From assembly GCA_964457775.1 (NCBI GenBank), contig CAYWEW010000006.1:10805-74804 (forward strand): a DNA stretch of 64,000 nt, read 5' to 3'. This stretch comes from an uncultured Candidatus Saccharibacteria bacterium. Lineage in GTDB: Bacteria; Patescibacteriota; Minisyncoccia; Phycocordibacterales; UBA5272. Each line of letters opens with the position of its first letter. The stretch's first letter is position 1. Below the pieces are notes generated by a model. That model was not told where the DNA came from and did not search any database. It saw nothing but the letters and a program-made list of their open reading frames with translations. Both the position numbers and the translations under genes were made by a program. Below, in pieces: positions 4,897-28,495 of the stretch.

Positions 4897-6567
4897 ATGA
4901 ATTTATCGAAAAAGGTTTTACAGGCTCTGCTTATTTTGGGTTCTATCTCCCTCACCACCTCTTCTGTTTATGCATCAATAACAATAACGTCGCCAAATGG
5001 AGGTGAAAATTGGTCAGGAACAAAAACAATTACTTGGACCAGTGTCGGAACAAGTGGATTCGTAAATATATATAGATGTCTAACATTAGATTGTTCTTCT
5101 ACATCCACAGTTGCAACCAATGTTACAGATACAGGTTCGTCTACCTTTGATACGTCTGGGTTAAACGCTACTAACAAAATTTACATAGAAGATGCATCAG
5201 ATACTTCAATGTCAGATGTTTCGGATAACACATTCAGGATCGATAATACAATTTCTAGCTGTAATGCTTCGATTGGGTCAAATAATACTGGCTCTGCAAG
5301 AATAGCAAAAGTAGGTGATCTTATTACCGTCAACTTTGATACTTGCGAATCAATAAGTTTAGGGACCGTTACTTTTTTTGGAAAAATAATTAATGCTACG
5401 AACATTGGAGGAAATACTTGGTCTGTTTCTACAACGACAACCATGACTGATGATGAAGGTCTTGTTTCTTTTAATATTAATTATACCGACCTTGCGGGTA
5501 ATTCAATGTCACGATCAAGTACAGTTAATGGATCATATGTGATATATGACAAAACATTTCCAGAATCCTCTATATCTTTTTCAACATCAACATTCACAAT
5601 TGGAAGTATGGCTACCGCAACAATTACCTTTAATGAGAAAGTAAGAAACTTTGCAAATGATGACATTATTAGAATTGATAACGGAACACTTTCTACTGCA
5701 ACATCATCTGATGACGGGATCACATGGACAGCGATTTTTACTCCGACAGATGCTACAAGTTCATTAAGTAACGTAGTTGTTATTGATACATCTCTGCTTA
5801 ATGATATTGCAGGAAATACTGGAACAAGTACAGCAACATCTTCAAGCTATATTATTGATACTGAGAGACCTACAGCGACAACATCACTGTCTTCTAATTC
5901 AGTTGGAATTAGTCAGACAATAACCCTAACAATTACCTTTAATGAGAAAGTAAGAAACTTTGCAAATGATGACATTATTAGAATTGATAACGGAACACTT
6001 TCTACTGCAACATCATCTGACGACGGTATAACGTGGAACACTATCTTCACCCCAACATTAGGAATTAGTAATACTATAAGTACCATTGCTATTGGATCAA
6101 GCTACACTGACATTTATGGAAATACCTCAGCAACAGGTACAGTTACTGCGAATTTTATCGTTAATACTCCTACAGTTAGTCAGAGTGGAGGCGGAGGTTT
6201 TTCTGGAGGCGGAGGTGGAGGTTCAGTTGTAACTGTTGTTCAGCAACCTGTAGCTACCACTACACAAAATCAAAATACAGCGCAATCCGTACCCGTAACA
6301 ACTCAAAGTACTCTAAACTTACCAACTGTTCTAGGAGCTTCGATATTTATCTTCTCGAAAAACTTAAAGTTAGAATCTACAGGAAATGATGTGATGGAAT
6401 TACAAAAGTTCTTAACAAAAGAAGGATTTTTCAGCAATAAGCCAACTAAGTATTTTGGTAGACTTACGAAAATTGCATTGATGAAATGGCAGAAAAAAAA
6501 CAATTTGCCAGCGACAGGATATTTTGGTCCTATGTCTAGAGTAACTATAAACAGCAATTCTAATTAA
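4897..6567 (+). CDS. secreted surface protein with Big_5-like Ig repeats, a Gly linker and a C-terminal peptidoglycan-binding (PG_binding_1-like) domain
   Basis: It has a signal peptide. Domains ending in ...D(L/I)AGN(T/S) are repeated, matching the Big_5 signature. A GGGGFSGGGGGGS linker precedes the C-terminus. The C-terminus LESTGNDVMELQKFLTKEGFF...LTKIALMKWQKKNNLPATGYFGP matches the PG_binding_1 pattern. Confidence 0.7.
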   Translation: MNLSKKVLQALLILGSISLTTSSVYASITITSPNGGENWSGTKTITWTSVGTSGFVNIYRCLTLDCSSTSTVATNVTDTGSSTFDTSGLNATNKIYIEDASDTSMSDVSDNTFRIDNTISSCNASIGSNNTGSARIAKVGDLITVNFDTCESISLGTVTFFGKIINATNIGGNTWSVSTTTTMTDDEGLVSFNINYTDLAGNSMSRSSTVNGSYVIYDKTFPESSISFSTSTFTIGSMATATITFNEKVRNFANDDIIRIDNGTLSTATSSDDGITWTAIFTPTDATSSLSNVVVIDTSLLNDIAGNTGTSTATSSSYIIDTERPTATTSLSSNSVGISQTITLTITFNEKVRNFANDDIIRIDNGTLSTATSSDDGITWNTIFTPTLGISNTISTIAIGSSYTDIYGNTSATGTVTANFIVNTPTVSQSGGGGFSGGGGGGSVVTVVQQPVATTTQNQNTAQSVPVTTQSTLNLPTVLGASIFIFSKNLKLESTGNDVMELQKFLTKEGFFSNKPTKYFGRLTKIALMKWQKKNNLPATGYFGPMSRVTINSNSN

Positions 6568-6593
6568 ATTTAAAGTATAATTACTCTTCTATT

Positions 6594-7655
6594 ATGAAAA
6601 AAATACTTGTAACCTTAAAACATGTTTTTATACCTCATGATGAGAATGACTACAAGCCACATTTTTTTCGAGAAGTAAGTGTTTCAATGTTACTTTTTAT
6701 GAGTGTGTTTCTATTAGGGTCTTCTGCGGGCAGTTCATTTTTCATGAAAAAAACTGTTCTTGGTGCTGAAATTGCTTCGTCAGTGCTCATTGACCTTACC
6801 AATGAAAGTAGACTGGCTCAAAACGAGCCCCCTTTAATACGTAACCCAAAACTTGATAGAGCTGCTGAATTGAAAGGTAATGACATGGCTAGTAAGCAAT
6901 ATTTCTCTCATAATAGTCCTGAAGGTGTGACACCATGGCATTGGTTCAGAGAGGTTGGTTATAACTTTCTATTCGCAGGTGAAAATCTAGCAATAAACTT
7001 CTCTGATTCAAGTGAAGTTCAAAGGGCGTGGCTTGAATCTCCAACACATAGAGCAAATATAATGAACGTTGAGTTTCGAGAAATAGGTATCGCAACTATA
7101 AAAGGGGAGTATAACGACTACCCTACTATTTATATTGTTCAAATGTTCGGTACTCCAGCATATGGAAAAATTAAAGAAGACAAGTCATTTTCTGTACAAG
7201 AATATGGAGCGTCATCAACGGTAACTGTCTCTAAAATTACTACATCAGAAAACGTTAAAGGTGCTTCTACTGGAACTGTTGCTGAAGAAGTAACTGCAAA
7301 AACTACGGTCGCTTCGACGAGTAGTTCAACCATACAAACTCCTTCTAATCTTGAAAAAATTGTATCAACACAAGATATTGCCGTTGTAAAGAATACTTCA
7401 GTTGAGATGTCAAAAATCCCAAAACATGTTGTTGTCCCAATGATTTCATATTCTACATGGTATGAGAAAATTCTTTTCAAGTTTTCTTCGTATATTGAAA
7501 TTCTTTACAAAGGATTATTACTTCTTGTGGCATTTGCCCTTGTTACTATGGTTTTAATTGAGATTCGTAAACAGCATTATGTTCATATAATGTATGGTAT
7601 TTTCTTGCTTCTTCTTCTAACACTATTTATTAATATTAATAAGATATTCTTGTAG
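6594..7655 (+). CDS. CAP/SCP (PR-1-like) domain protein with a C-terminal TM anchor
   Basis: CAP-domain blocks are present: NESRLAQNEPPL, AAELKGNDMASKQYFSHNSPEG, FAGENLA and WLESPTHRANIMN. A hydrophobic C-terminal helix follows. Confidence 0.65.
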   Translation: MKKILVTLKHVFIPHDENDYKPHFFREVSVSMLLFMSVFLLGSSAGSSFFMKKTVLGAEIASSVLIDLTNESRLAQNEPPLIRNPKLDRAAELKGNDMASKQYFSHNSPEGVTPWHWFREVGYNFLFAGENLAINFSDSSEVQRAWLESPTHRANIMNVEFREIGIATIKGEYNDYPTIYIVQMFGTPAYGKIKEDKSFSVQEYGASSTVTVSKITTSENVKGASTGTVAEEVTAKTTVASTSSSTIQTPSNLEKIVSTQDIAVVKNTSVEMSKIPKHVVVPMISYSTWYEKILFKFSSYIEILYKGLLLLVAFALVTMVLIEIRKQHYVHIMYGIFLLLLLTLFININKIFL

Positions 7656-7700
7656 AATAGTAAGAAGAAATCATTTGAGCTTTATGGTAAAATAGAGTTC

Positions 7701-9359
7701 ATGAATCCAAAAGATCAGATTAAAGAAAATCTATCTATTACTGAGGTTGTATCTACCTATATCCGCCTCGAAAAGTCAGGGGCTCAGTTTCGTGCCCGTT
7801 GTCCGTTCCACAATGAGAAAACTCCTTCTTTCTATGTTTCACCTGAGAGAAAATCATTTCACTGCTTCGGATGCCAAGCACATGGAGATATTTTTTCTTT
7901 TGTTGAGAAAATTGAGAATATTCCATTTTTTGAAGCACTCAAAATTTTAGCTGACAGAGCCGGTGTACAGTTATTAGATACACAAAAAAATAAAGAAGAC
8001 ACTCGTCTTATCACTCTTTTAAAAGATGTAACAGGACATCTTGAGAAAAATTTAAAAGGCAGCCCCGAGGCAATGAAGTATCTTATTGACAGAGGTTTAA
8101 CTGATGAAACAATAAAAATATTCCACATAGGATATGCCAAAAACGAGTGGCGTGATTTGTTTATTTATCTCGTGTCACTTGGATATACACCTGAAGAAAT
8201 AGAACAAGCCGGCATGACCATAAAAGCACAAGATGATTTTGGGAATACAAAAGGTTGGTATGATAGATTTAGAGGACGTGTCATGTTTCCAATAAGAAAT
8301 GTGTCTGGTGCAACAGTTGGATATTCTGGTCGTATATTACCGTCACTTGTAGACCCATCAGTTGCTCAAGGAAAGTATGTTAATACTCCAGAGACTGCTC
8401 TATATCATAAGTCTAAAATTTTGTTCGGTTATGATACTGCAAAAAAGAGAATGGCAGAAACAAAATCTGTGGTTGTGGTGGAGGGTCAAATGGATTTATG
8501 TATGAGTTATCAGGCAGGTATTCATAATACGGTTGCAGTATCAGGAACGGCCTTTACTGACGAACATATACACATTATTAAGCGTTTTTGTGAAACAGTT
8601 GTACTTTCTTTTGATACTGACACTGCAGGGCAAAATGCTCTCAAAAAAACAGCATTACTTTGTTTATTAGGTGGTTTAGATGTGTATGTGGTGGGTGATA
8701 TTGGTACTAAAGATCCAGCTGATTTAATAAAAGAAAATCCTACTGCTTGGGTTAATGCGATAGAGAACAAAAAACACGTAATTGAATTAATGCTTTCAAG
8801 GATAATTAATGATGGAGAAGATACTCGCGTACAGGGTCAAAGAATAGTGAGCGAAGTGTTACCATTCATTAGGGCAGTACAATCACCAATTGATAGAGCT
8901 CATTTTATTAGAATAGTCTCACAAAAAACTCATATTCCAGAAGCAACATTATCTGAAGAAATATCAAGAGGAGCATTAGCGCAGCCAGATATTATAAAAG
9001 AAGAAGTAATAACCATGCCAAGCAAAGAAAGACTACTTCGTGAAATAATCGCCTTCACAAAACTCACTGATTTACATAAAGACGAAAGAGTTACAGTACT
9101 TGAGATAGACTTTACACAATTCCCAGACACAATCATAGAAGAGGAAATGTTTAAGTTGGAAGAAAAAGTAATAGGGGATAAAGATAAATATTTCAATGAT
9201 TTAATTAAGAGTTTTAAAAAGGAACAACACAAAGAACAATTAATTATCTTGCAACAAAAAATGAGAGTGGATGGTGCAGACAAAGAAGCTATTCTAAAAG
9301 AAATATATGATCATGTAAAAAAGGGACCTGAAGCAATTTACGGTCTTAAAAGTAATTAA
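7701..9359 (+). CDS. dnaG: DNA primase
   Basis: CHC2 zinc finger CPFHNEKTPSFYVSPERKSFHCFGCQAHGD. TOPRIM region VVVVEGQMD...SFDTDTAGQNA. Confidence 0.9.
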   Translation: MNPKDQIKENLSITEVVSTYIRLEKSGAQFRARCPFHNEKTPSFYVSPERKSFHCFGCQAHGDIFSFVEKIENIPFFEALKILADRAGVQLLDTQKNKEDTRLITLLKDVTGHLEKNLKGSPEAMKYLIDRGLTDETIKIFHIGYAKNEWRDLFIYLVSLGYTPEEIEQAGMTIKAQDDFGNTKGWYDRFRGRVMFPIRNVSGATVGYSGRILPSLVDPSVAQGKYVNTPETALYHKSKILFGYDTAKKRMAETKSVVVVEGQMDLCMSYQAGIHNTVAVSGTAFTDEHIHIIKRFCETVVLSFDTDTAGQNALKKTALLCLLGGLDVYVVGDIGTKDPADLIKENPTAWVNAIENKKHVIELMLSRIINDGEDTRVQGQRIVSEVLPFIRAVQSPIDRAHFIRIVSQKTHIPEATLSEEISRGALAQPDIIKEEVITMPSKERLLREIIAFTKLTDLHKDERVTVLEIDFTQFPDTIIEEEMFKLEEKVIGDKDKYFNDLIKSFKKEQHKEQLIILQQKMRVDGADKEAILKEIYDHVKKGPEAIYGLKSN

Positions 9360-9401
9360 AATTGCCTACAATGTTGTTAATAATTATGTGGATAACTTTA
9401 G

Positions 9402-9430
9402 TGGACATATTGTCTAATTTGTAGTATAAT
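9402..9430 (+). promoter_or_regulatory. sigma70-type promoter upstream of rpoD
   Basis: TGGACA (9402-9407), a 17-nt spacer, then TATAAT (9425-9430). Confidence 0.5.
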
Positions 9431-9446
9431 CCCCGATACACGTCAT

Positions 9447-10871
9447 ATGGCGAAAAAAGTATCTTCACAAAAAAAGAGTGTACAGAAAAAAACTACAACA
9501 AAAAATGTAGTCAAAAAATCAAAAACCAATAAGGTGGTATCTTCAAAGAAGACTACCCCTGCAGTGAAAAAATCTCTTGCAAAGAAATCACAAAAAAAGA
9601 CACCAAAGAAGACAACAAAGAAAGTCATACCTACAAAAAAAGTAACTAAGAAAGTAGTTAAGAAAGTAACAAAAAAAGTTATCAAGAAAGAAAAGAAGAT
9701 TGCTCCAAAAAAGCAAACTCCAAAAATAGAGGAAAAACCAAAGTACAAACCAAAAGCTTTCACAATTAAGACAGGTCCATCAAAACCAAAGATTGTTGAA
9801 AAACCAAAGAAAGTAACTACTCGTGATCAAAACGAAGAGGAGCTTCTAAAAAAAGGAAAGGAACGAGGATTCATTACATATGATGAGATTATTCGTTATT
9901 TCCCTACAATTGAGACGGATATTCTTTATCTAGAGGAATTGTATGAAAAGATGAGCGCTGCAGGAATTGACGTTCTAGAAGGTGGAAATCTTCTTGATAT
10001 GGATGATGATCTTCTTAAATTAGAAGGGCGTGATAGTACTCATGATAGTATACAAATGTATTTACGTGAAATTGGTCAATATCCTCTAATTTCAGGAGAT
10101 AATGAACGTGAACTTGCTATTCGTATTGAAAAGGGTGATATGGAAGCTGGAGCATTACTTGCTAAAGCAAACCTCCGTCTTGTTGTTTCCATTGCGAAGA
10201 AATACGTTGGGCGTTCATCTGATCTTACACTTCTTGATCTTATTCAAGAAGGTAACTTAGGGCTCTTTAAAGCAGTTGAAAAGTTCGACTGGAATAAAGG
10301 CTTTAAGTTCTCAACTTATGCTACTTGGTGGATTAGACAAGCAATCACACGTGCGCTTGCTGATCAATCAAGAACAATTCGTATTCCTGTGCACATGGTA
10401 GAAACAATTGCTAAGTACAAACAAGTAGTTCGTCGTCTATCACAAGATCTAGGTCGTGATCCACTCGCAGAGGAAATAGCGGTAGAAATGAATGTTGATG
10501 TTGAAAAAATTCACATTATCGAAAACATTAATCAAGACACTGTTTCACTCGAAAAGCCAATCGGAGACGATGATGACAAGTCCACACTAGGTGAATTTAT
10601 CGCTGATGATAAAATTCTTTCTCCAGACCAAGAAGCGTCACACAGAATTCTTGCTGACCAAATCAATGAAATATTAGATGATCTTTCTCCAAAGGAAAGA
10701 AAGATTGTAGAAATGCGAAATGGCCTCGGTGAGTTCGATGGCGTTATGCACACTCTTGAAGAAGTAGGGGCAGAGTTCGGAGTTACTCGTGAACGTATTC
10801 GTCAAATTGAAGCAAAGGTACATGAAAAGATTCGTTCTCATGATAAATCAGAACGTTTAAGAAATTATTAA
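9447..10871 (+). CDS. rpoD: RNA polymerase sigma-70 factor with a ~125-aa Lys-rich N-terminal extension
   Basis: Regions 1.2 to 4 are conserved ([69 protein letters not shown]). The N-terminus is a KKxxKK low-complexity tail. Confidence 0.92.
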
Positions 10872-10880
10872 TGCATAAAA

Positions 10881-10903
10881 ATATTCAGATCAAATCTGAA
10901 TAT
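10881..10903 (+). terminator. intrinsic terminator after rpoD
   Basis: Palindrome ATATTCAGAT-caa-ATCTGAATAT followed by TTTT. Confidence 0.6.
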
Positions 10904-10920
10904 TTTTATAAAACCAAAAG

Positions 10921-10949
10921 AAAAAACACTTCTTGAGAAGTGTTTTTTC
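10921..10949. terminator. bidirectional terminator hairpin between the convergent rpoD and RRM gene
   Basis: AAAAAACACTTC-ttga-GAAGTGTTTTTT has A/T runs on both sides. Confidence 0.6.
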
Positions 10950-10972
10950 ATTGTGTGTATTTCTAATTTAAA

Positions 10973-11254
10973 TTAGAAAGCACGACGTGGACGATCCTCG
11001 CGAGGTGCGAGTGGACGAGCTACATTTACAGTAAGACGACGTCCTTGGAATTCCTGATCGTGGAACATGGCGATAGCCTTGTTTGCTTCCTCATCAGATG
11101 ACATTTCAACGAAGCCGAAGCCCTTTGAACGGTTAGTCATCTTGTCGATGATAATTTGAGCTGAAAGTACAGTTCCGGCTGCGCCGAAGTGTGCCTTAAG
11201 ATCGTCGTTAGTAGAAGTGTAAGGTATACCACCTATGTAAAGTTTTGAATTCAT
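10973..11254 (-). CDS. RRM-domain RNA-binding protein
   Basis: RNP2 LYIGGIPY and RNP1 KGFGFVEM motifs are present. The protein has an Arg-rich C-terminal tail. Confidence 0.85.
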   Translation of the reverse strand: MNSKLYIGGIPYTSTNDDLKAHFGAAGTVLSAQIIIDKMTNRSKGFGFVEMSSDEEANKAIAMFHDQEFQGRRLTVNVARPLAPREDRPRRAF

Positions 11255-11508
11255 TTATGTTTAGAAACTAATTGTTAATCTAAGCCCTAGCGCACAGTAA
11301 TACAAGTGTAGAAACAGTGTAAAACGTGGAGTTGCTTATAGACTATATACTACCATATTTTATATACAAAAGTCAATAGCTGTTGGGTAGTTATTAGTAA
11401 TTAGCTTGTAGAATATGGCTAAAATAGATTACAGATTCAAGGATTTTGTATCACATCAGAATGTCAGCACTCTTTTCATTGTATATAAAAATATAGAATC
11501 ATTGTATA

Positions 11509-11739
11509 ATGATATATATGAATAAATTTGAATCAAACCAAGGGAATGTAATAAATTTTGAAGAAAAAAAACTTGAACAACTTAAAGATACTGAAGAAAC
11601 ATTTAGAATTGCTATGGTTCAAGCAATAGAAGATCTTGAGCGAGGGCAAATTACAGAGGTTGTATTTGATGATTTGAGGTCTAGATATTTTATAGCAAAG
11701 CAAGAGCGTGAAGATTTTGAATTAAAGTTTAAAATTTAA
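11509..11739 (+). CDS. hypothetical small protein (76 aa)
   Basis: An ORF with a TGTATAAT-like -10 element upstream. No recognisable domain was found. Confidence 0.35.
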   Translation: MIYMNKFESNQGNVINFEEKKLEQLKDTEETFRIAMVQAIEDLERGQITEVVFDDLRSRYFIAKQEREDFELKFKI

Positions 11740-11774
11740 CTTTTACTCCTCAAAAAAATTCTTTGTAAAAAAAA

Positions 11775-13250
11775 TTAGAGTTTTCCCAAATCAAGCGTTT
11801 GAGTTACTCCAATATCTTTTACGAATTCATGTACGTGAGATACAACAATCATTGGACCTTGATAGTTTTTTAGTGCTTCTGCAATAACAGGGATGTGTCT
11901 AAAGTTAATGTGATTAGTTGGTTCATCAAGAATAAGTAGCCCTGGTTTTAGTAGTCTTAAATATGCGAACATAAGTAAACCTTTTTGTCCTTCAGACAAT
12001 AATCCAATTTTTGAAGCTAATTGTTCAGCGCCGAGCAACATACTCGCAGCGGTTCTTCTTAATAACTGATCGTCCAATCTTGCTAGGACTTTTGCTAATT
12101 CTTGATATGATGACTTTTCAAAATCAAGCGTAGAAAAATCTTGACGATAATATCCAACTCTTATACCATCTTGTATGGTTACACCTTTTTCCGTACGCAT
12201 TGCCATTTTTTCAAGTAATGTAGTTTTACCAATTCCGTTTGGTCCAATAATGTGTAACTTATCTCCCTTACGCAACTCAACACTTACTTTTCTTTTAACC
12301 GGTTTTCCATCATGCAAAACTTCAACTGATTCAAAATTCACAATTACACTACCAATATCTTCCTGACAATCAATAGTAAAAGGTTTTATAGTTCGATCTT
12401 CTTTACGAACATCTACTTTACTGTCTTCAAGTTCCTCGACTTCATCGCGTAACTTAGCAGCCAGCTTACGCATCTTACCTCCTTTAAGTGCAAAGAAGTT
12501 AACTTTGTCTTTGTTATTTTGAATCTCTTTTTCCAGTTGAGCGTTCGCTCGTTCAGCGCGTTCAACTTGACGCTTGATATCTTCAACTACCTTAAAGTAA
12601 TTACCAACATATTGTTCTAGTTGATATGTCTGTGTATTTATATAAACAACACCATGAGTGAAAGAGTTAAGGAAGTCTGCGTCGTGAGAAATAACAATCA
12701 CTGTTTTGTCATATGACTTCATAAAGTCAGTTAGAAGTTGTATACCTGCTTTATCAAGGTTGTTTGTTGGTTCATCCAATAATAATATATCTGGTTCCTG
12801 AATTAATGCCTGAGCAATAAGTAGGCGCCCTTTTTGTCCACCAGAGAGGTCTTTAATAGTTTTATCAAGTGGCACATTTAGTTCTACAGTTGCAAATACA
12901 CTTTGAGCTCTTTTATCAATATCATAAACTTTTTCCTTAAATGCAAGTTCCAAAAATTCTCTAACAGTAAGACTCCATTGTGTATGAGAAATGAATTGTT
13001 TCGCAAGAGCAACAGACAATCCTTGACCGATAATTACTCTTCCTTCTTCACAGTGGCGCTCACCCATAATTAGTGAAAATAGGGTAGACTTACCAGCACC
13101 ATTTGGTCCCATTAGAGTAAGCTTAATTCCTTTACGCACGACAAAATTAGTCTCAAACAGAATTGGTTTGTTTTCACTGTAATTAAAAGTAACGTCTTCG
13201 AAACGAAGAACGACTTCACCTCCAGAAGGGATTTGTTTTTCGACAGCCAT
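11775..13250 (-). CDS. ABC-F family ATPase (tandem ABC domains, no TM domain)
   Basis: Two Walker A motifs (GPNGAGKST and GPNGIGKTT). Signature motifs LSGGQKGRL and LSEGQKGLL. A coiled-coil linker is present. Confidence 0.9.
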   Translation of the reverse strand: MAVEKQIPSGGEVVLRFEDVTFNYSENKPILFETNFVVRKGIKLTLMGPNGAGKSTLFSLIMGERHCEEGRVIIGQGLSVALAKQFISHTQWSLTVREFLELAFKEKVYDIDKRAQSVFATVELNVPLDKTIKDLSGGQKGRLLIAQALIQEPDILLLDEPTNNLDKAGIQLLTDFMKSYDKTVIVISHDADFLNSFTHGVVYINTQTYQLEQYVGNYFKVVEDIKRQVERAERANAQLEKEIQNNKDKVNFFALKGGKMRKLAAKLRDEVEELEDSKVDVRKEDRTIKPFTIDCQEDIGSVIVNFESVEVLHDGKPVKRKVSVELRKGDKLHIIGPNGIGKTTLLEKMAMRTEKGVTIQDGIRVGYYRQDFSTLDFEKSSYQELAKVLARLDDQLLRRTAASMLLGAEQLASKIGLLSEGQKGLLMFAYLRLLKPGLLILDEPTNHINFRHIPVIAEALKNYQGPMIVVSHVHEFVKDIGVTQTLDLGKL

Positions 13251-13405
13251 TTTAGATAGTTATTAGTTGGTAGTTACTGGTTTGTAGTTTAAATACAATT
13301 CGATAACAATAATAAATGGCCTAGTGGCCAGATGGTTATAGGATAACACAAAAAGTTACTTTTGTCAGCTTTTTAAAGGAAATTGTGATATAATTATAAA
13401 ATTAT

Positions 13406-14266
13406 ATGGAACCCACTTTAAATCTAAACGACATTGTCGTTATGTATCATGCTCATTGTCCAGATGGAATGGCTTCAGCTTGGAGTGCTTGGAAAAAACT
13501 TGGTGACTCCGCAAGTTATATCCCAGTTTCTGATAGGAACGTGCCTCCAGAAGGTCTTGTTAATAAAGAGCTATATATATTAGATTTTTGCTATCCTGCA
13601 GAAGTTTTAAAAAAACTTGAAAATGCTAATAAAAAAGTTGTCGTTCTTGATCATCATGTGAGTTCAAAGGATGACGTAATGTCAATTACTGGAGGAGTTT
13701 TTGATAATACTCGTTCAGGAGCAGGGATGGCATGGGATTATTTTTTTGAGGGGATTCCACGGCCTAAACTTATAAACTATATAGAAATTGGCGATCTTAA
13801 TCCTCATAATTTACCTGAAGGAGAACATTTATCACAAAGAATAATATCAACTCCATTTAGTATGAAAGATTATGGTGATCTAATTTCTAGATATGAAATT
13901 GATCCAGATGCTCTTATAAATGAAGGCAAGGCAATTGATTTGTATGTTGCACGTCTATTTGATATGGCACTAGATGACTATGAACTTGTTTCATTTGAAG
14001 GTTACACTATGCCGGCGATTAATATTGCTCTACCTCTAACTACAAAATCTCAACTACTTATGAAGATGTATGAGTTGGTACCTCCAATTGCAATGTCGTA
14101 TCGTCATGAAAATGGACTTTGGAAAGTTTCATTACGCAGTGATGGCTCTGTTGATTGTTCAGCACTTGCATCCAAATATGGAGGGGGTGGGCATAAGGCA
14201 TCAGCTGGATTTGTTTTGAAGTCAGACAGCCCACTTCCTTTTTTAAGGTTTATTGCTAGTGATTAG
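13406..14266 (+). CDS. DHH/DHHA1 phosphoesterase (NrnA-like nanoRNase/pAp phosphatase)
   Basis: Motifs HAHCPDGMAS, VLDHH and GGGGHKASAG (DHHA1 GGGH..AAG). Confidence 0.8.
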   Translation: MEPTLNLNDIVVMYHAHCPDGMASAWSAWKKLGDSASYIPVSDRNVPPEGLVNKELYILDFCYPAEVLKKLENANKKVVVLDHHVSSKDDVMSITGGVFDNTRSGAGMAWDYFFEGIPRPKLINYIEIGDLNPHNLPEGEHLSQRIISTPFSMKDYGDLISRYEIDPDALINEGKAIDLYVARLFDMALDDYELVSFEGYTMPAINIALPLTTKSQLLMKMYELVPPIAMSYRHENGLWKVSLRSDGSVDCSALASKYGGGGHKASAGFVLKSDSPLPFLRFIASD

Positions 14267-14368
14267 TTCACGGTATAATTATTCTCCAAGTTTATCTCCT
14301 ACATATATACCAACCCACAACAACTTAACCAGTTGCCATGAAAAGTGTCATGTTTTATTTTGAACCTA

Positions 14369-15070
14369 TTATTTGGTTATTTCAATTAACGTGTCATTAG
14401 AAACTTTAAAGTATCTTGATGTCAATATTGTCGGTTTAGTTGTCATAGGGGATTCAATCGGTCTGTCGAAGTACTTAACCACAATTTCACCATTTACAAA
14501 TTCAGTTGTTTTGGGAACAACTCTATCACCAATCAATGCTCCGTTAGTTCCTTCATATTCACCATTTTCATTCAGTATAGCAACTACAAGATAATAAAAG
14601 GCCCCAACCCCTGAGTTGTCACTAGTAATAATAAATGCAGAGTCTATTCTATTATCTTCATTAATGTCTACTCTTAACTCATTTCCGAAATACCTAACTG
14701 TCGTTGTTGATAATATATTATTGATTAGATCTACTTTGGTTGCGGTCCCGTTATCAAGATTAAACATTCTTCCTTCTATGTCGTAAGAAGTATTCTTTGG
14801 ATTAGTTTTTTTTGCTATTAATGTTGTTGTCGAGACTATAGTTTCCGATGCAGTTTGAGATGTATTAACAAAAACCTTTCCAGGGATTTTACACTGTTCT
14901 GGATAAGTTGTGAGTATTTGGTATCCAGCAGAAACGCATTCATCAAAATTTGTTATTGATAAATGTTTTTTTTGAGCTTGCTTGAAATATAAGTATGCAA
15001 CAAAAAGAAATATTATGAGTGATAAATACAGAAATATTCTTACACCACGCTTCAAGGTTCTTTTTTTCAT
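14369..15070 (-). CDS. hypothetical membrane-anchored exported protein
   Basis: N-terminal signal-anchor MKKRTLKRGVRIFLYLSLIIFLFVAYLYF. It is the last gene of the histidine-kinase operon. Confidence 0.5.
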   Translation of the reverse strand: MKKRTLKRGVRIFLYLSLIIFLFVAYLYFKQAQKKHLSITNFDECVSAGYQILTTYPEQCKIPGKVFVNTSQTASETIVSTTTLIAKKTNPKNTSYDIEGRMFNLDNGTATKVDLINNILSTTTVRYFGNELRVDINEDNRIDSAFIITSDNSGVGAFYYLVVAILNENGEYEGTNGALIGDRVVPKTTEFVNGEIVVKYFDRPIESPMTTKPTILTSRYFKVSNDTLIEITK

Positions 15071-15092
15071 AATAACTATATAATACTATATT

Positions 15093-16883
15093 TTACTGAA
15101 CACCGTTGTTTATTACAAAGGAAACAGTAAAGCAGGTTCCTTCACCAAGTTTTGAAGAAACAGATAGTGTTCCACCCATTTTTTCTACTAACTCTTTGGT
15201 AATGAATAAACCAAGACCGGTTCCTTCAATAGTAGTATTTTTTACATCACCAGCACGGAAGAATTTTTCAAATAAATGTTTTTGATCCTCTTCTGACATT
15301 CCACGACCATTATCTTTAATTGAGGTATGAACAAAATTATCTATTACTTCATGAGAAATAACAATTGTACCATTATCATTTCCATATTTAATGGCATTAG
15401 AAACAAAATTCATAATAACCTCTTTGAAGCTACCGACGTTTATATTAACCATAGGTAATTCCGGTGGTCGATTATATGTTATGGTTATGTTTCTTTTTAG
15501 TGCAAGAGGGTGAGCTTCATCTATGATTGCAGATATTTCTTTTCTAATATCTGCTGGCGAGATAGAAATCTCTAATTTACCTGCTTCAGAACGAGCCACT
15601 TTCAACAAATCATTAACAAGGTTAACAAGCCTCTCATTTGATTTTTTGACAGGGGAAAGCAAGTGTTCCATTTCTGGTGCAATTATTCCTCCATTGCCAT
15701 CAAAAATTAGTTCCATATATCCTTTAATAGCAGTTACAGGGGCACGTAACTCATGAGCGGCGACGTACACGAATTCATTTTTAAGTTCTTCTAATCTTTT
15801 TAAACCAACTGTCATACCATTAAATGATTCAGCAAGTTCCTCTAATTCATCGTTTGTTGAAATTGTTACTTGTTTATCAAAATTACCATTCTCAATTTCC
15901 TTAGCTTGTTCCTCTAAGGCTTTAATTGGTTTTACTAATCTATTGGCAAATAATAATGCCATAAATAAAACAATAATTATACTAATAATAATTGTCATAA
16001 GAACAGTGTTTCTAAAGTCTTCTATTATTTTATCTGACTCAGAAATTGGCCACTCAACCATAAGTGCCCAATTTAAATTTGGAATAATATTTACCGCACG
16101 ACCAGAGCTTACAACTGGCACAGAATCAATTATACTCACATAGCGGTCAGTGGAAGATAGGCCGTCGAATATTTTTCCGTTTAAAACATCAGTTACTCTG
16201 TTCCAACCGTAATAATCTAGTTTATTGGCTCTATTTGACACCACAGGGGTGCCTTTATTATCAAATAGTAATATATAGCCAGTTTCATAAACATTGACCT
16301 TCTCAAGCATTTTTATGAGTGGTTCAACTGAGACTTCAGCAATGACAACGTTAAATATTTCATTATTCAAAGTTAAAGGCACAGCGATTGAAACTACTTG
16401 TCCTTGCATTGTTGTGTGAACCTCAGTAATAACCGTCTCACCGGACATTGCTCTTTTGAACAACGGTAATTCAGAAAGATAGAGCAAAGAAGTGGAAGTG
16501 CTAACTCTTGAATACTTTGCTTTTTCTTTACCATCTTCTCCAATCAGGCTTGCTTCCATAATTGCGGTGTTGCTTTCAACAAATTTTCTCACATAGTCTT
16601 GCCTCCAAGTGGAACTAACATTTTCTGTTATTGTATTTTTGTCCAATGTATCTAGATTTGTTGACAGTGTGTCAATAATTTTACTAAAAAAATCAGTAGT
16701 TATGTTTGAAGCGTTGTTAAGTGCTTGATGTTCAATAACAGATATGTTTTTTTTGTGAGTATTTGAAATATTTAAAAGAGAAACTACACCAAGACCTAAA
16801 ATAGGAATACAAGAAATAACAATAAACAAAAAAATAAATGTATACCGTAGCTGACCTCTTTTCTTGTGTTCTTGTATAGGCAT
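15093..16883 (-). CDS. sensor histidine kinase (TM, extracytoplasmic sensor, HAMP, HisKA, HATPase_c)
   Basis: H-box AAHELRAPVTAIKGY. N and G boxes NAIKYGNDNG and GTGLGLFITKELVE. Two TM segments flank a ~250-aa extracytoplasmic domain. Confidence 0.85.
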   Translation of the reverse strand: MPIQEHKKRGQLRYTFIFLFIVISCIPILGLGVVSLLNISNTHKKNISVIEHQALNNASNITTDFFSKIIDTLSTNLDTLDKNTITENVSSTWRQDYVRKFVESNTAIMEASLIGEDGKEKAKYSRVSTSTSLLYLSELPLFKRAMSGETVITEVHTTMQGQVVSIAVPLTLNNEIFNVVIAEVSVEPLIKMLEKVNVYETGYILLFDNKGTPVVSNRANKLDYYGWNRVTDVLNGKIFDGLSSTDRYVSIIDSVPVVSSGRAVNIIPNLNWALMVEWPISESDKIIEDFRNTVLMTIIISIIIVLFMALLFANRLVKPIKALEEQAKEIENGNFDKQVTISTNDELEELAESFNGMTVGLKRLEELKNEFVYVAAHELRAPVTAIKGYMELIFDGNGGIIAPEMEHLLSPVKKSNERLVNLVNDLLKVARSEAGKLEISISPADIRKEISAIIDEAHPLALKRNITITYNRPPELPMVNINVGSFKEVIMNFVSNAIKYGNDNGTIVISHEVIDNFVHTSIKDNGRGMSEEDQKHLFEKFFRAGDVKNTTIEGTGLGLFITKELVEKMGGTLSVSSKLGEGTCFTVSFVINNGVQ

Positions 16884-16889
16884 GTATTT

Positions 16890-17660
16890 TTATAACCCCA
16901 TTTTTTTAAGAGTTTCGTTATTAATGTATGTTGCGGATATTGGTATATTTACTTGGCCCATAATATCTTTATTTGTTACAAGACTAACATTGGTTTGCTG
17001 ACCATCTTTATATACGTAAGATGACAATTTGTAATTATCTGGAAGGCCTAGTGTGTGATAAAACTCATGGGCTAAAAATGTAGTCCCGGTATCTTTATAC
17101 ACATCATCAGTAAGATATGGTCTAGAAATTAAAAAGAAATCATCATTTCCCGCAGCTCCTTTACCTTCGAAAATAACTAAGTATACATTTCTGGCTGATT
17201 TATCAATAACTACATCTGACTCCGGGTATAGTTCACCTGTAGGGGTTAACAACCTTCTTGTAATTTCTTCTTTAACTGGGGTAAGAGCTTCATTGTCATC
17301 GTACTCAAATAAATTTTCATACTCCTTCAATTTTTTTTCACCTACTATTATTTTCTCAACGAATTTATAACTAATTTTTGAAGTATTGTAAAATTGAACA
17401 TTATGAAAATCAACTAAACTTTTCAAATGTTCTTCCGCATTTTTCTTCCAGTTAGTATCCTCTTTGACTGTAATGTCTTTAGGAATAAAATATATTATAT
17501 TTATATTTATTTTTTCTATAGACAAATCATCATTTCCATACATATGAGGTTTTGGACTAACTAACAAGGGTTTTTTGTCCACTTTACTAACTCCCACAAA
17601 AGAAGCTAAAGATATTAGAGAGGCGATAAGAAAAGTAGAAATTAATATAATACTTCTCAT
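16890..17660 (-). CDS. secreted zinc metalloprotease (HExxHxxGxxD, snapalysin/M7-like metzincin variant)
   Basis: Signal peptide present. Motif AHEFYHTLGLPD fits HExxHxxGxxD. It lies 3 nt from the upstream gene and 6 nt from the downstream gene. Confidence 0.6.
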   Translation of the reverse strand: MRSIILISTFLIASLISLASFVGVSKVDKKPLLVSPKPHMYGNDDLSIEKININIIYFIPKDITVKEDTNWKKNAEEHLKSLVDFHNVQFYNTSKISYKFVEKIIVGEKKLKEYENLFEYDDNEALTPVKEEITRRLLTPTGELYPESDVVIDKSARNVYLVIFEGKGAAGNDDFFLISRPYLTDDVYKDTGTTFLAHEFYHTLGLPDNYKLSSYVYKDGQQTNVSLVTNKDIMGQVNIPISATYINNETLKKMGL

Positions 17661-17663
17661 GCA

Positions 17664-20600
17664 TTATAAATTACTACTAGCAATTATTTCATTAATTTTC
17701 TTCCTTGTTGCTTCACCTACTATTCCAGTTCCAGTTTTGTAACCATTAGGAATTAGGATTTCCTCCTTGTAATAGTTTTGAAAACGAGTAACAGCATTTC
17801 TTGTTAATTTACCATAGTAACCTGTAATAGGACCGGTTACGTAAAATCCGTCCACTTTAAGAGCCTTTTGAAGGGCTGTTACATCATCTCCCTTACTTCC
17901 GAAAAGTAATTTACGAGTAATTTGACCAGTTGATACTTGTCCAGGTGGCAATGCCAAAGAATTAGATTTATTTTTAGAAGCGAACTTATCACCAAGTACA
18001 GTGGTAGCTATTTGATTTCCATTACTAGACTCATTACCAGCGGTATCAACAGCTCTTACTGTGTAATAGTAGGTTTTTCCAATAATTGAATATGTTTTAT
18101 CTATAAAAGAAGAAGAGAATACTTCCGCGGCAATAAGATCACCATAACTCCCAATTTTTTCAGAGCGATAAACTTTAGCGTGATGAAAATCATTCTGTGG
18201 ATTATTCCAAGTAATTTTTACATCCGTCGGTGTAACAGCATCTGTAACTATATTAGTAGGGGAGGAAGGGGCGGTGGTGTCAGCAGACGCAATAAGTGCA
18301 AACCTTGTTAAGTGTTGAACAAACAATGTAAAAGTTTTTTTACTTTTATCAATTGTAAATTTTGGCACAGAAACCCACGTTCCTATCTTCTCATCAAAGT
18401 AACTAGGGATAAGATTCTCAACACTTATGCCTTGAGCGCGCAACTCGTCCTCATCATAAGGAAGTGTAATTTTTGCCTCTGAGGATAGTGTGGTTACATT
18501 AACCCCTGTACTATTTTTAATGGTGATATCATACACAGTGCTTATAACTTCAGCAGACTTTTGAGAAGGTGCCTCTGTTGTAGGTTTAACTTGAACATCA
18601 ATTGATCCAGATGAGTTTGTTGAATTTGGTGGGAGTGTGATGCTTGCACCATCTGTAGCCTCCACCTTAACTGTCTCTGTTGTTGCAATTTTTGAACTAA
18701 CTGTCTGTGGAAGACTTTCAAAATTATTTTTCATGAAAAATAATGATACAGGGGATGAGTATGTATTTTTTGTAATCAGTATTTCAGTTGTTTCGTATGA
18801 TTTACTATCTTTGTCTTTATTTGCAGAAATATGCCAAGTGTCATTTGATGCAAGTAAAAGTGAAAATTCTCCATCAACAGAAGAATGTGTGGATTTTGAT
18901 CCACCATTATCTGACCATGCAGAAATATGAGCATTAGTTGTTAGACCATCATCAAACTTTGTTGCACCTCTTAGTTCAAAAACATTTAATACGTCTTTCT
19001 TTTTTAAAACAAAAGTAATTATTTTAGTCTCGTTATCATTAATCGAAACAGTTTGTTTTTCAGCTGGAACATAAGGTAAAGTATCAATGAACGCTGTATT
19101 CACAATATAGTTTCCAGCCTTAAGTAAGGCAGAAGTATTTCCAGTCGCATCAGTTGTTAAGGTATTCATTCTTATATTATCGTTACTACTTATTACAACT
19201 CCGATGTTTGGAACAGGGTTACCCAATTCGTCCTTAACAATAGTTCTTAATGTCGATACCAAGGGTCTTGCAGAAAAATTAACAACTTTATCAGTTTCAG
19301 AAACAACTACAATACTATTATCAACAACCCAAGATCCGTTACTTGTGTTCCCGTCTAATACACTTAATGTATATGTCCCCCCCGGAACAGATAATGAATA
19401 TTTTCCAAAAATGTCTGTAATTGCAGTAACTGATTTTGCATCATTGTATGCAGTAACTCTAGCTCCTACAACAAATTTACTATCAGGAAGCGATATCACA
19501 CCTGATATATTTCTTAGGGGTGCTTCTGCAATAACAATTGATGCAGTAGCTGAATCTGAACACCCCAAGTTATTAGTACACGCAGAAATACTATAAGTAT
19601 ATGTCCCAGAAGAAAGTCCTGTATCATCATATGTAGAACTTTGAGAAGTCCTATAGCCTTGCGTTGATCCTTGTGTTAAGGATTGTGCATTTGACCATAA
19701 CGGGGTTCTAGTAATTTTAAAATAATCCTCGTTGTTAGATTCATCTATCCAAGATAATTTTACATTTGATAAATTATTATAAGTTAACAATATATTTGCA
19801 ACAGCCCTAGATGGACTTTTTGGTTTTGAGATTACTGGTTCAGGTATAATTATTTGAACAAAAGGAGCAAAGTCAGAACAAATTGTAGAACTAGAAACAG
19901 AACAAGATTGAACAGAATATTTGTAAGCACCATAAGATAATGTTCCTAAACTATATGGACTAGTTTTATTATTCTCTTGAGCCCCAGTAATAATATTTTT
20001 TACATTATATGTAAAGCCAGTATTTGCTGACCAAGAAAAATTTGCACTACCGTTTGTTGATGTTGCAATAAAAAGCCCTGAAGGGGTGATAGGACGAGGA
20101 ATCGTTGGATTTATTACTGCTGTATTAATTTCCGGAATTACTATATATGTTGTAGATGACGCTGAACAATTGGTTTCACTAATACATGCCAAAACATTGT
20201 ATATGTATGTACCATGAGGAAGATTTACCCCAACAATTTTAGAATTCGAATCAGACGTAAAAGTTGATAAACTGCCTTGCCCTTGTTGTCCACCAACAAT
20301 CTTATATGCATTAGCTCCAGTTACATAATCCCAAGAAATAATAGTAACTATTCCATCTAAGCTAGAAGATGTTGCAATTTTAGTATTGTTAGGTTTATTT
20401 AGTGTCGTAGGTGTTATTGGAATAACTGGTATATTTACTTGTGGACTAAAATAAACTAACCCAGAACAAGTCACTTCATTACAAGCATCTATACTATAAG
20501 TATAATTACCAGGTGATAAATTTGTATCAGCGTAAGTCGTATTTCCAGCACTTCTAGTAGATATGAGTACAGAGGTGCCACTTGCTGGACCTGATCTGTA

Positions 20601-21476
20601 GATTCTGAATATTGTTTCATTACTAGACCTATCTACCCAGTTTAGTGTTACTGAGTTAGTGGAAGTAGAAATACCATTAGTAGTAATTGGTTTCTCGATT
20701 ATAGTTGGAACTACAGTAATTTGAGGAATAGTTACAGATTTGACTGGTGAATAGGAACATAAATCACCGTTACATACTTTGATTTTATAATTATAAATAA
20801 TACCAGGCTCAACACTATAATCAGAATATGATGACATTGTTGTGCTGTTAAGAGTCGTTGGTATTTCGTTTTCAATACCATTGCTGTATTTTATTATTTT
20901 TGTAGAATTTGTAGTACCTACAGTGTTATAATTATTCCATTGTAAAATGACGTAATTTCTTGTTACCCCACCATCTGTCGTTGATGTAGCAATTGTGGCA
21001 CTTAAGGTAGTTGGTGCAATAGGAGCAGTAGGTGTAGTTATCTGTGTTGTTTCTGTTGTAGATGTTAATACTAGTGGATATTCTATGCTTCTTACCTCTT
21101 GACTTTGATTCATTGCACCTGATCCTGAAATATTATTTGTGTTCAAAGTGTTACTAAAAGTAGAAACAACTTGATACGCTAATGATATACCAGTTGGTAA
21201 TTCTGTGACATCAATACAAGAAGATATTGAATCATTGGATAATGTTCCTGAACAGCCTGAGTCAAACTCCTTATAGTATGAGCTGTAATTACTTGTAGAC
21301 TTAATTATAACATAATCACTAAGTGACCTAGCGTCTTTTTGCCAATTAATTTTCGCACTATTTGTTGATGTTTTTTGAGCATTAACATTGCTTATTTGCG
21401 ATGCAAAAGTAATTGAAATTTGACCAAAAGAAACAATTGACGCAGCAAATAATATTACAATAGCTCCTTTTTTCAT
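17664..21476 (-). CDS. large secreted surface protein (1270 aa) with FN3/Ig-like repeats, carboxypeptidase-regulatory-like beta-sandwiches and a C-terminal PG_binding_1-like domain
   Basis: Signal peptide present. The protein has repeated T/S-rich Ig-like modules. The C-terminus GDDVTALQKALKVDGFYVTGPITGYYGKLTRNAVTRFQ matches the peptidoglycan-binding pattern. Confidence 0.75.
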   Translation of the reverse strand: MKKGAIVILFAASIVSFGQISITFASQISNVNAQKTSTNSAKINWQKDARSLSDYVIIKSTSNYSSYYKEFDSGCSGTLSNDSISSCIDVTELPTGISLAYQVVSTFSNTLNTNNISGSGAMNQSQEVRSIEYPLVLTSTTETTQITTPTAPIAPTTLSATIATSTTDGGVTRNYVILQWNNYNTVGTTNSTKIIKYSNGIENEIPTTLNSTTMSSYSDYSVEPGIIYNYKIKVCNGDLCSYSPVKSVTIPQITVVPTIIEKPITTNGISTSTNSVTLNWVDRSSNETIFRIYRSGPASGTSVLISTRSAGNTTYADTNLSPGNYTYSIDACNEVTCSGLVYFSPQVNIPVIPITPTTLNKPNNTKIATSSSLDGIVTIISWDYVTGANAYKIVGGQQGQGSLSTFTSDSNSKIVGVNLPHGTYIYNVLACISETNCSASSTTYIVIPEINTAVINPTIPRPITPSGLFIATSTNGSANFSWSANTGFTYNVKNIITGAQENNKTSPYSLGTLSYGAYKYSVQSCSVSSSTICSDFAPFVQIIIPEPVISKPKSPSRAVANILLTYNNLSNVKLSWIDESNNEDYFKITRTPLWSNAQSLTQGSTQGYRTSQSSTYDDTGLSSGTYTYSISACTNNLGCSDSATASIVIAEAPLRNISGVISLPDSKFVVGARVTAYNDAKSVTAITDIFGKYSLSVPGGTYTLSVLDGNTSNGSWVVDNSIVVVSETDKVVNFSARPLVSTLRTIVKDELGNPVPNIGVVISSNDNIRMNTLTTDATGNTSALLKAGNYIVNTAFIDTLPYVPAEKQTVSINDNETKIITFVLKKKDVLNVFELRGATKFDDGLTTNAHISAWSDNGGSKSTHSSVDGEFSLLLASNDTWHISANKDKDSKSYETTEILITKNTYSSPVSLFFMKNNFESLPQTVSSKIATTETVKVEATDGASITLPPNSTNSSGSIDVQVKPTTEAPSQKSAEVISTVYDITIKNSTGVNVTTLSSEAKITLPYDEDELRAQGISVENLIPSYFDEKIGTWVSVPKFTIDKSKKTFTLFVQHLTRFALIASADTTAPSSPTNIVTDAVTPTDVKITWNNPQNDFHHAKVYRSEKIGSYGDLIAAEVFSSSFIDKTYSIIGKTYYYTVRAVDTAGNESSNGNQIATTVLGDKFASKNKSNSLALPPGQVSTGQITRKLLFGSKGDDVTALQKALKVDGFYVTGPITGYYGKLTRNAVTRFQNYYKEEILIPNGYKTGTGIVGEATRKKINEIIASSNL

Positions 21477-26658: not shown

Positions 26659-26809
26659 AATTTCAGTATATTAAATATATATAGATTGTGCTAGGCATTC
26701 GCAATTACAATTCAGTAAAAAAATGTTTTTCATATTGTTGTGTAAAAACAAACCCCCCGACAGTGTAGTTGTCAGGGGGCAATGAAGTGTGATGTTCTCG
26801 ATTACTTCA

Positions 26810-27202: not shown

Positions 27203-27288
27203 ATATACTTCCTTTCGTAAGTTTATGGACAGAACTACATTTTTACACTATAATATATAGTCAACATTGTCAATAATTTCTTATAGTA

Positions 27289-27735: not shown

Positions 27736-27785
27736 ATATAAAAAAGTGTAGCAGAAAAATTAAAAATATAAAATGTAAATATATA

Positions 27786-27824
27786 AAAAGCCACCGACAA
27801 GCGATGGCTTTCGGTGGAAAAAAT
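27786..27824 (-). terminator. intrinsic terminator of the island family GCCACCGA..TCGGTGGC
   Basis: Minus-strand RNA CCACCGAAAGCCAUCGCUUGUCGGUGGCUUUUUAUAUA. Confidence 0.65.
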
Positions 27825-27831
27825 TATTTCA

Positions 27832-28041: not shown

Positions 28042-28096
28042 TTGTATCTCCATGTGTGTAAGAGGTCAACAAACATAATGGGTGGGAGGTTTGGGA

Positions 28097-28369: not shown

Positions 28370-28495
28370 TACGGTCTCCTAAAGGAACAATACTCACATA
28401 ATACAATGATTATCTATATGTTGTCAAGTTATTTAAGAGATGGGTAAATTTATTTATATTCAATAAAATAACAGTACAGTGGTTAATATATAAAT

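Follow-up and report, generated by a model that had tools for sequence, protein, structure and literature searches.

Three putatively exported proteins end in the same domain

The stretch of DNA analyzed here, referred to throughout as the window, comprises 64,000 nucleotides (nt) of contig CAYWEW010000006.1 (assembly GCA_964457775.1) from an uncultured Candidatus Saccharibacteria bacterium. It encodes three large proteins (proteins 1, 2, and 3), whose C-termini share a domain of the PG_binding_1 family (PF01471), named for peptidoglycan (PG) binding, and which this domain probably holds on the cell wall. An initial annotation of the window had pointed at the three open reading frames (ORFs) and at a motif of ~60 amino acids (aa) closing each of them; translations and alignment bear out both. 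The features of the three proteins are listed below, with a hyphen marking predicted signal-peptide cleavage sites.

4897..6567, + strand: protein 1, 556 aa; signal peptide, four beta-sandwich domains (two Big_12), poly-Gly, spacer, and PG_binding_1
4897..4974, + strand: predicted Sec signal peptide of protein 1, aa 1-26, MNLSKK...SSVYA-S; n-h-c organization in the sequence
6187..6222, + strand: poly-Gly hinge of protein 1, GGGGFSGGGGGG, aa 431-442 (GGGG + GGGGGG); predicted local distance difference test (pLDDT) score ~40-50
6223..6327, + strand: disordered spacer of protein 1, rich in Thr, Gln, Ser, and Val, aa 443-477; pLDDT ~40
6328..6360, + strand: 'VLGA..F.F' N-terminal extension of the protein 1 domain, aa 478-488; partly ordered in the model
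6361..6564, + strand: PG_binding_1 of protein 1, aa 489-556; three-helix bundle, isoelectric point (pI) 10.1, net charge +7
17664..21476, - strand: protein 2, 1270 aa; signal peptide, fn3/immunoglobulin (Ig)-like and CarboxypepD_reg beta-sandwich repeats, and PG_binding_1
21402..21476, - strand: predicted signal peptide of protein 2, aa 1-25, MKKGAIVILF...ITFA-S; the sole segment of the protein with a Kyte-Doolittle value >=1.6
17667..17909, - strand: PG_binding_1 variant of protein 2, aa 1190-1270, with the insertion YYKEEILIPNGYKTGTG between helix 2 and helix 3; pI 9.4, net charge +4
48113..55654, - strand: protein 3, 2513 aa; signal peptide, Gly_rich_2, two (lectin-like SPRY + DUF7483) units, beta-rich region, linker, and PG_binding_1
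55559..55654, - strand: predicted signal peptide of protein 3, aa 1-32, ...KFFLFFLFLFFSTPFVTFA-Q; the sole strongly hydrophobic segment of the protein
48338..48643, - strand: linker of protein 3, aa 2338-2439; GGGGGG, Thr/Ser-rich spacer, RRRGGGG, and 'MVLGA' extension
48116..48337, - strand: PG_binding_1 of protein 3, aa 2440-2513; pI 9.3, net charge +4; Pfam profile positions 2-56/57

The three proteins had been described as otherwise unrelated, and their passengers, that is, the regions preceding linker and tail domain, are indeed of different kinds. Protein 1 carries Ig-like Big_12 domains (143.6 bits in Pfam), protein 2 beta-sandwiches of the CarboxypepD_reg/ChitinaseA_N type (Pfam), and protein 3 a Gly_rich_2 region followed by twice SPRY + DUF7483. 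We do not retain the term "family of secreted proteins" that had been applied to them, as the domain is all they have in common. Of the 119 homologues that match protein 3 best, not one contains PG_binding_1 (0/119), and the tail of this protein is therefore regarded as an add-on. A Gly-rich linker, annotated for the first and third proteins, is present in both, with runs at aa 2338-2343 (GGGGGG) and aa 2395-2398 (GGGG) in protein 3; no Gly run was found in protein 2. All three N-termini resemble signal peptides in their n-h-c organization, a heuristic criterion: the n-region is basic, the core hydrophobic, and the cleavage site AXA-like (VYA-S, TFA-S, and TFA-Q, respectively), which is consistent with the export that had been proposed.

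The shared tail matches PG_binding_1 in sequence and fold

Each of the three tails exceeds the gathering cut-off of PF01471 (23 bits) in Pfam, with 47.2 bits (E 2.5e-12) for aa 495-545 of protein 1, 39.8 bits (E 5.2e-10) for aa 1196-1236 of protein 2, and 55.0 bits (E 9e-15) for aa 2448-2502 of protein 3. The match in protein 2 spans profile positions 2-41, being stopped by the insertion after helix 2, whereas a hidden Markov model (HMM) built from the three tails spans the protein 2 tail over its full length. An insertion of the same type is present in two loci of the Candidate Phyla Radiation (CPR), L023 and L077. Run against the six-frame translation of the window, the tail HMM recovers proteins 1-3 only (E 1e-36 to 1e-37; next match E 0.81), and the sharing of the domain is thus real and specific. 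Pairwise aa identity between the tail domains amounts to 28-42%, and their DNA matches do not exceed 15 nt, corresponding to chance words. Recent shuffling or gene conversion among the three tails, the former raised as a caveat in the initial annotation, was rejected on these grounds.

The fold was modeled for the tail of protein 1, whose last 127 aa were submitted to AlphaFold2 together with seven related tails, the tails of proteins 2 and 3 being assigned by sequence only. The model is a three-helix bundle (pLDDT 91-96; helices at model residues 68-80, 93-105, and 116-125) that superposes on solved members of the family, confirming the PG_binding_1 assignment. Foldseek searches of the Protein Data Bank matched it to SleB (6tci) with a template modeling (TM) score of 0.90 on the target and a root-mean-square deviation of 1.5 Å, and assigned a probability of 1.00 to 6tci, 4c2e, and 3bkh. 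Besides SleB, the structures matched include CtpB, phiKZ gp144 (3bkh), L,D-transpeptidases, a Zn DD-peptidase, a PG-binding protein of C. difficile, and, weakly, matrix metalloproteinases (MMPs). The sequence profile of the tail likewise matches solved PG-binding domains, namely those of phiKZ gp144, SleB, CtpB, an L,D-transpeptidase, and a Zn DD-peptidase.

Family and three-helix fold are hence those of the PG_binding_1 domains of wall enzymes (SleB N-terminal domain, 6tci; phiKZ gp144/KZ144, 3bkh; Streptomyces Zn DD-peptidase, 1lbu; L,D-transpeptidases; CtpB), with which the window copies presumably share the same non-covalent peptidoglycan recognition. In wall enzymes, however, the domain serves to target an enzyme, frequently from an N-terminal position, whereas the copies in the window close long non-enzymatic passengers. 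Unlike their counterparts in wall enzymes, the domains of proteins 1 and 3 are moreover preceded by poly-Gly, a low-complexity spacer, and the 'VLGA..F.F' extension typical of the lineage.

A basic domain, in two proteins behind a disordered linker, follows acidic beta-rich passengers

Domain and passenger differ strongly in charge. The tail domains of proteins 1-3 are basic, with a pI of 9.3-10.1 and a net charge of +4 to +7, whereas the passengers are acidic (pI 4.1-5.5, net charge -11 to -31), an asymmetry typical of wall-binding modules. Outside the N-terminus, no strongly hydrophobic segment (Kyte-Doolittle >=1.6) was found in any of the three proteins; the C-terminal domain is therefore the only retention device that can be recognized in them. 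Searches of the passengers in Pfam and NCBIfam yielded no catalytic or hydrolase family, only Ig-like, lectin-like, and beta-sandwich domains.

The tail had also been proposed to act as a C-terminal sorting module. Sorting signals (LPXTG/sortase, PEP-CTERM, GlyGly-CTERM, PGF-CTERM, and the C-terminal domain (CTD) of the T9SS) resemble the window tails in that they are found C-terminally on surface proteins of many kinds, frequently behind a spacer of low complexity. They differ in their make-up, a short motif with a hydrophobic helix and basic tail behind it or, alternatively, a beta-sandwich CTD, and in being removed by a dedicated sorting enzyme. Because a hydrophobic C-terminal tail is absent, the sorting-signal reading was rejected: proteins 1-3 lack both the hydrophobic C-terminal helix and the basic tail following it, and their C-terminus is a soluble, basic, folded domain.

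In the full-length model of protein 1, four beta-sandwiches (aa 27-423) and a disordered stretch (aa 427-490) precede three helices. Orthologues of this protein are 50-85% identical overall. PG_binding_1 is their best-conserved region (68-81% identity) and the spacer the worst (17-37%), while the poly-Gly run is kept, with G432-434 invariant. The 'VLGA..F.F' extension is conserved in the orthologues and occurs in unrelated Minisyncoccia proteins as well. Judged from these alignments, such a pattern is as would be expected for a functional binding domain on a length-tolerant tether.

C-terminal PG_binding_1 domains recur in Patescibacteria

The named closest relatives of the protein 1 tail and of protein 3 all belong to Patescibacteria/CPR (Minisyncoccia, 'Patescibacteria group', and Ca. 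Jacksonbacteria), which points to a Minisyncoccia/Parcubacteria-like lineage for the organism. The representative genomes of GTDB were also searched with a four-sequence alignment restricted to the domain and free of Gly-run information, and the enclosing ORFs were reconstructed. The best loci came from Taylorbacteria, Kaiserbacteria, Adlerbacteria, Giovannonibacteria, Parcubacteria, Minisyncoccia, and metagenome-assembled genomes (MAGs) labeled Saccharibacteria, with Bacillota and cyanobacteria lower in the ranking. Among 30 loci from CPR or probable CPR, 15 have no more than 20 aa between the end of PG_binding_1 and the C-terminus, compared with 2/40 non-CPR loci (Fisher p = 2.7e-5), where the domain is mostly N-terminal, as in hydrolases. 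CPR proteins with a C-terminal domain measure 230-1400 aa, and the passengers preceding the same tail include beta-helix, LamG, fn3, Ig-like, TIG, Bact_surface_Ig-like, and polysaccharide deacetylase domains; proteins of Minisyncoccia, Taylorbacteria, Kaiserbacteria, and Adlerbacteria thereby carry the tail on unrelated passengers.

A run of at least four Gly within 150 aa upstream of the domain is present in 7/16 CPR-like C-terminal cases with a passenger of at least 200 aa, against a background of 0.045 runs per 150 aa in the remainder of the same 16 proteins. It follows that a composite cassette recurs in the lineage, made up of a Gly run, a low-complexity spacer, often the extension 'G.VLGA..F.F', and PG_binding_1. 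A homologue search with an eight-sequence composite alignment returned short proteins only (136-311 aa), an effect of word-density pre-filtering, and is biased to Gly runs; it was excluded from these statistics. The initial annotation had anticipated a lineage-specific system. What stands of this is the enrichment of C-terminal placement in CPR; exclusiveness does not, since the domain itself is ubiquitous, with 49,624 representative clusters matching the tail profile at E<=1e-3.

Big_12 passengers also occur with other C-termini. One homologue, from a Bacillota MAG (P0016), ends in three SLH domains, and another, a protein from a JGI metagenome, carries RTX repeats in place of the tail. From these architectures, the C-terminus of Big_12 passengers is a site for lineage-appropriate anchoring or secretion modules.

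Two further architectures were observed in these searches. The best 150 matches of the tail profile (P0049-P0198) are proteins of 385-1369 aa with 4-16 tandem PG_binding_1 copies, very different from the single C-terminal copy of proteins 1-3. In Candidatus Taylorbacteria bin-01970, three large proteins on three contigs (L005, L007, and L009) have differing passengers (beta-helix, LamG-like, and others) and a near-identical C-terminal cassette of ~120 aa, which reads '...SSGG(S)TAQSRVNNLLAMGNTTLANQ(I/V)AQQYNI...' and continues into a PG_binding_1 domain with a 'TGPGSKGNETTMFG' insertion. L005 and L007 additionally have the preceding fn3-like domain in common. The similarity of these sequences suggests within-genome exchange of the cassette in that Taylorbacteria organism.

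Protein 3 is a relative of phage tail-fibre proteins

Phage tail-fibre/lectin virion proteins (DUF7483, SPRY/LamG, and Gly_rich_2) are homologues of the protein 3 passenger. In PHROG, protein 3 matches a virion structural family (phrog_19943, 1134.6 bits) and a tail fiber family (phrog_24898, 467.8 bits), and along ~60% of its length it shares 34-40% identity with tail-fibre/lectin proteins, most of them from pelagiphages and further ones from Methylophilales, Roseobacter, and Synechococcus phages. The Gly_rich_2/DUF7483/SPRY-LamG family to which it belongs is very large, with 694 matches at E <= 1e-10. The phage forms differ from protein 3 in having neither a signal peptide nor a PG_binding_1 tail; they end in '...AFAExPFKYANAR'. 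Protein 3, in addition, lies among housekeeping genes, those flanking the giant ORFs being proS, an M50 protease gene, and a histidine kinase gene. In our reading, protein 3 is no prophage gene product but a cellular protein that is displayed on the surface and related to the receptor-binding proteins of phages.

Homologues of protein 3 that look cellular (P0200-P0212 and others) have hydrophobic segments at the N-terminus and a short, conserved hydrophobic end, '...SAQPAASTxVFSNAASFLMGMTF/Y' ('FLxGMxF'). This end could be an uncharacterized C-terminal motif serving as an alternative to the PG_binding_1 tail.

A fourth giant ORF (protein 4) occupies positions 55952-63064 on the - strand. It comprises 2370 aa from a GTG start as listed, and the start may lie further upstream. 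The protein contains LVIVD beta-propeller repeats and a Peptidase_S74 intramolecular-chaperone domain and matches tail-spike and virion structural families in PHROG; PG_binding_1 is absent from it, and its C-terminal tail is rich in Thr, Ser, and Pro.

Probable non-covalent wall anchoring and its alternatives

CPR cells are monoderm and possess peptidoglycan, and a peptidoglycan wall is plausible for this organism because mreB is encoded in the window. Taking domain, charge, and architecture together, we consider it probable that proteins 1-3 are held on the cell's own wall by non-covalent PG_binding_1 anchoring, for display at the surface. They would be independent surface proteins, each exported via Sec with cleavage of its signal peptide, after which the basic three-helix domain at the C-terminus would grip the organism's own peptidoglycan. 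In proteins 1 and 3, the poly-Gly hinge and the disordered spacer rich in Thr, Ser, Pro, and Gln could form a flexible stalk across the wall, and the acidic all-beta passengers (Ig-like, lectin-like, and phage-tail-fibre-like) would face outward, presumably for adhesion. PG_binding_1 would accordingly be a portable anchor cassette that may have been joined many times to unrelated passengers in Patescibacteria, and a functional counterpart of the SLH, CWB2, or LysM anchors of Gram-positive surface proteins.

Such anchors, including GW/SH3b modules and the CWB2 domains of the C. difficile Cwp family, offer a close parallel in combining a signal peptide, a variable passenger, and a wall-binding module that recurs on unrelated proteins of one organism, and SLH takes the same C-terminal position as the window tails on the homologous Big_12 protein P0016. 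All of these anchors differ from PG_binding_1 in fold and presumably in ligand, and SLH and CWB2 form triplicated repeats, whereas PG_binding_1 is usually present as a single copy. The domain has itself been placed, as 'PGB1', among the non-covalent wall-binding domains of monoderm surface proteins, as one in need of characterization (PMC5817068).

Several points weigh against anchoring to the own wall. The top structural match of the protein 1 tail in Foldseek is CtpB, and the PG_binding_1 fold does not always bind peptidoglycan, serving dimerization in CtpB and forming the pro-domain of MMPs. The ligand-contact residues of the family are poorly defined. Signal peptides and cleavage sites of proteins 1-3 were called by eye and from hydropathy only. 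Protein 2 has no Gly hinge, and the domain is C-terminal in only about half of the CPR loci; the cassette is for these reasons a tendency and not a rule. Finally, Kuroda et al. 2024 favor host attachment for the highly expressed PG-binding-domain exoproteins of Paceibacteria (PMC10936435).

Transferred to the window, this published interpretation would have PG_binding_1 grip the peptidoglycan of a host or prey, for episymbiont attachment or host-wall targeting, with the proteins secreted or held by other means. We regard this as unlikely, for all that it has in its favor. Patescibacteria are typically episymbionts, and in the tail fibres of phages, to which the protein 3 passenger is homologous, the distal receptor-binding tip usually lies at the C-terminus. 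A similar idea has been put forward for LysM proteins of Saccharibacteria (PMC7739484). With no other retention device seen in proteins 1-3, however, nothing would tie them to the symbiont if the domain were engaged with the host wall. Display proteins anchored to the wall are arranged in just this way, with a flexible spacer directly adjoining the domain and large folded arrays of adhesin-like character further out, and SLH stands at the same position on homologous passengers. Moreover, the hosts in the study by Kuroda et al., Methanothrix and Methanospirillum, have no murein, which fits binding of the self wall better.

It appears quite improbable that the domain serves purposes other than peptidoglycan binding, be it oligomerization as in CtpB, lattice formation, or auto-inhibition as a pro-domain in the manner of MMPs. 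The best structural match is the C-terminal copy of CtpB, the MMP pro-domain has the same fold, with MMPs among the weak Foldseek matches, and the dominance of tandem-copy proteins in the profile search indicates that the fold serves many contexts. Yet the tail sequences match the PG_binding_1 consensus and the domains of phiKZ gp144 and SleB, whose binding to peptidoglycan is experimental knowledge, at least as well as they match CtpB. Their strongly basic charge suits a polyanionic wall ligand, and the passengers include neither a protease nor any other enzyme that could be inhibited.

Very doubtful, too, is the notion that proteins 1-3 are wall-modifying enzymes with an unrecognized catalytic domain, which PG_binding_1 would direct to its substrate in the canonical role of the domain. 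Most characterized PF01471 proteins are wall hydrolases or transpeptidases, some CPR relatives carry enzymes (e.g., the polysaccharide deacetylase P0035), and endolysin families are matched in PHROG. These endolysin matches are nevertheless confined to the tail regions (aa 1138-1265 of protein 2 and aa 436-553 of protein 1), the passengers are non-enzymatic in Pfam and NCBIfam, and the protein 1 model consists of beta-sandwiches and contains no enzyme-like fold; a hidden hydrolase domain was rejected on this evidence.

The least credible alternative, in which proteins 3 and 4 (48113-63064) would be tail-fibre/tail-spike genes of a prophage and the protein 3 domain a phage receptor-binding tip, would account for the strong PHROG matches of both proteins, the similarity of protein 3 to phage proteins, and the Peptidase_S74 domain of protein 4, yet it leaves proteins 1 and 2 unexplained and was rejected as the main explanation of the giant genes at 48-63 kb, given the classical signal peptide at the N-terminus of protein 3, a feature absent from virion proteins, and the housekeeping genes that neighbor it, with no capsid, portal, terminase, or integrase gene nearby in the window.

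Further features of the window

The window has a G+C content of ~35% and an ordinary chromosomal gene content, including rpoC, dnaG, rpoD, an ABC-F ATPase, two histidine kinases, priA, fmt, mreB, an M50 protease, and proS. It contains one tRNA gene (tRNA-Asn, 34024-34096, - strand), and no rRNA was found across its 64 kb. Two genes lie directly downstream of protein 2 on the same strand, with gaps of 3-6 nt, and may form an operon with it:

16890-17660, - strand: 256-aa signal-peptide protein with a weak M6-metalloprotease-like motif
15093-16883, - strand: dCache/HAMP histidine kinase

Adjoining tRNA-Asn, an array of small ORFs extends over positions 26700-34100 on both strands, with repeated elements between the genes and a G+C content a little above that of the flanking sequence. 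The repeats comprise an element of 50-77 nt, GCTCCAACTGGTAAACAAGTTCAGAACTTTTGATTGGAGG, in six copies (30698, 31430, 31964, 32281, 32886, and 33505), a palindrome, ACAAAAACACTATACCATAGTATAGTGTTTTTGT, in five copies, and a terminator-like GC hairpin, AAAGCCACCGA..GCGATGGCTTTCGGTGG, in four copies. Possibly the region is an integrated element, or else an array of cassettes that have a leader in common. Upstream of protein 1, an ORF of 278 aa (3934-4770, + strand) resembles UDP-glucose/GDP-mannose dehydrogenases, with its N-terminal and central domains matched and the C-terminal domain not; it is either a short form or truncated.

Relation to previous work and significance

In cultured Paceibacteria, the genes of extracellular PG-binding-domain proteins are among those with the highest expression (PMC10936435), and PG-binding-domain proteins have also been noticed in Nealsonbacteria. 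Compared by description, the exoproteins of Ca. Yanofskyibacterium, Microsyncoccus, and Minisyncoccus (PMC10936435) resemble those of the window in lineage, at the levels of phylum and class, and in pairing PG-binding with Ig-like or adhesion-type domains. They differ in having been read as a means of host attachment, and neither the C-terminal cassette nor the Gly hinge is described for them (Kuroda et al. 2024, PMC10936435). In the literature, we found no systematic description of a C-terminal PG_binding_1 cassette, and nothing on PG_binding_1 in surface proteins of CPR/Patescibacteria under those terms. PG_binding_1 as a wall-binding module and the PG-binding-domain exoproteins of Paceibacteria are thus known already. 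The new elements, drawn from sequence comparison, appear modest: C-terminal enrichment of the domain on non-enzymatic CPR surface proteins and its frequent pairing with a poly-Gly hinge. As both the domain and non-covalent wall anchoring are well known, the advance is incremental, not conceptual.

CPR/Patescibacteria are mostly uncultured episymbionts, and how their surface is built and how they grip their hosts is poorly understood. If the cassette were the standard wall anchor of CPR, a simple sequence rule would follow, namely a signal peptide together with PF01471 at the C-terminus, in many cases preceded by a Gly run. Such a rule would list surface-displayed adhesins from MAGs and pick candidates for host recognition, and it would help to interpret the highly expressed PG-binding-domain proteins of cultured Paceibacteria. 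Going further, poly-Gly hinge, disordered spacer, 'VLGA' extension, and basic PG_binding_1 domain might together constitute a general-purpose wall anchor of Patescibacteria, a counterpart of SLH, CWB2, and LPXTG, repeatedly grafted onto Ig-like, lectin-like, and tail-fibre-related arrays, with the Gly run acting as a hinge or processing site and not as a chance linker. We put this forward tentatively, as a possibility with rather less than even prospects. If it were true, these tiny cells could use the anchor to display host-capture devices, and possibly their S-layer.

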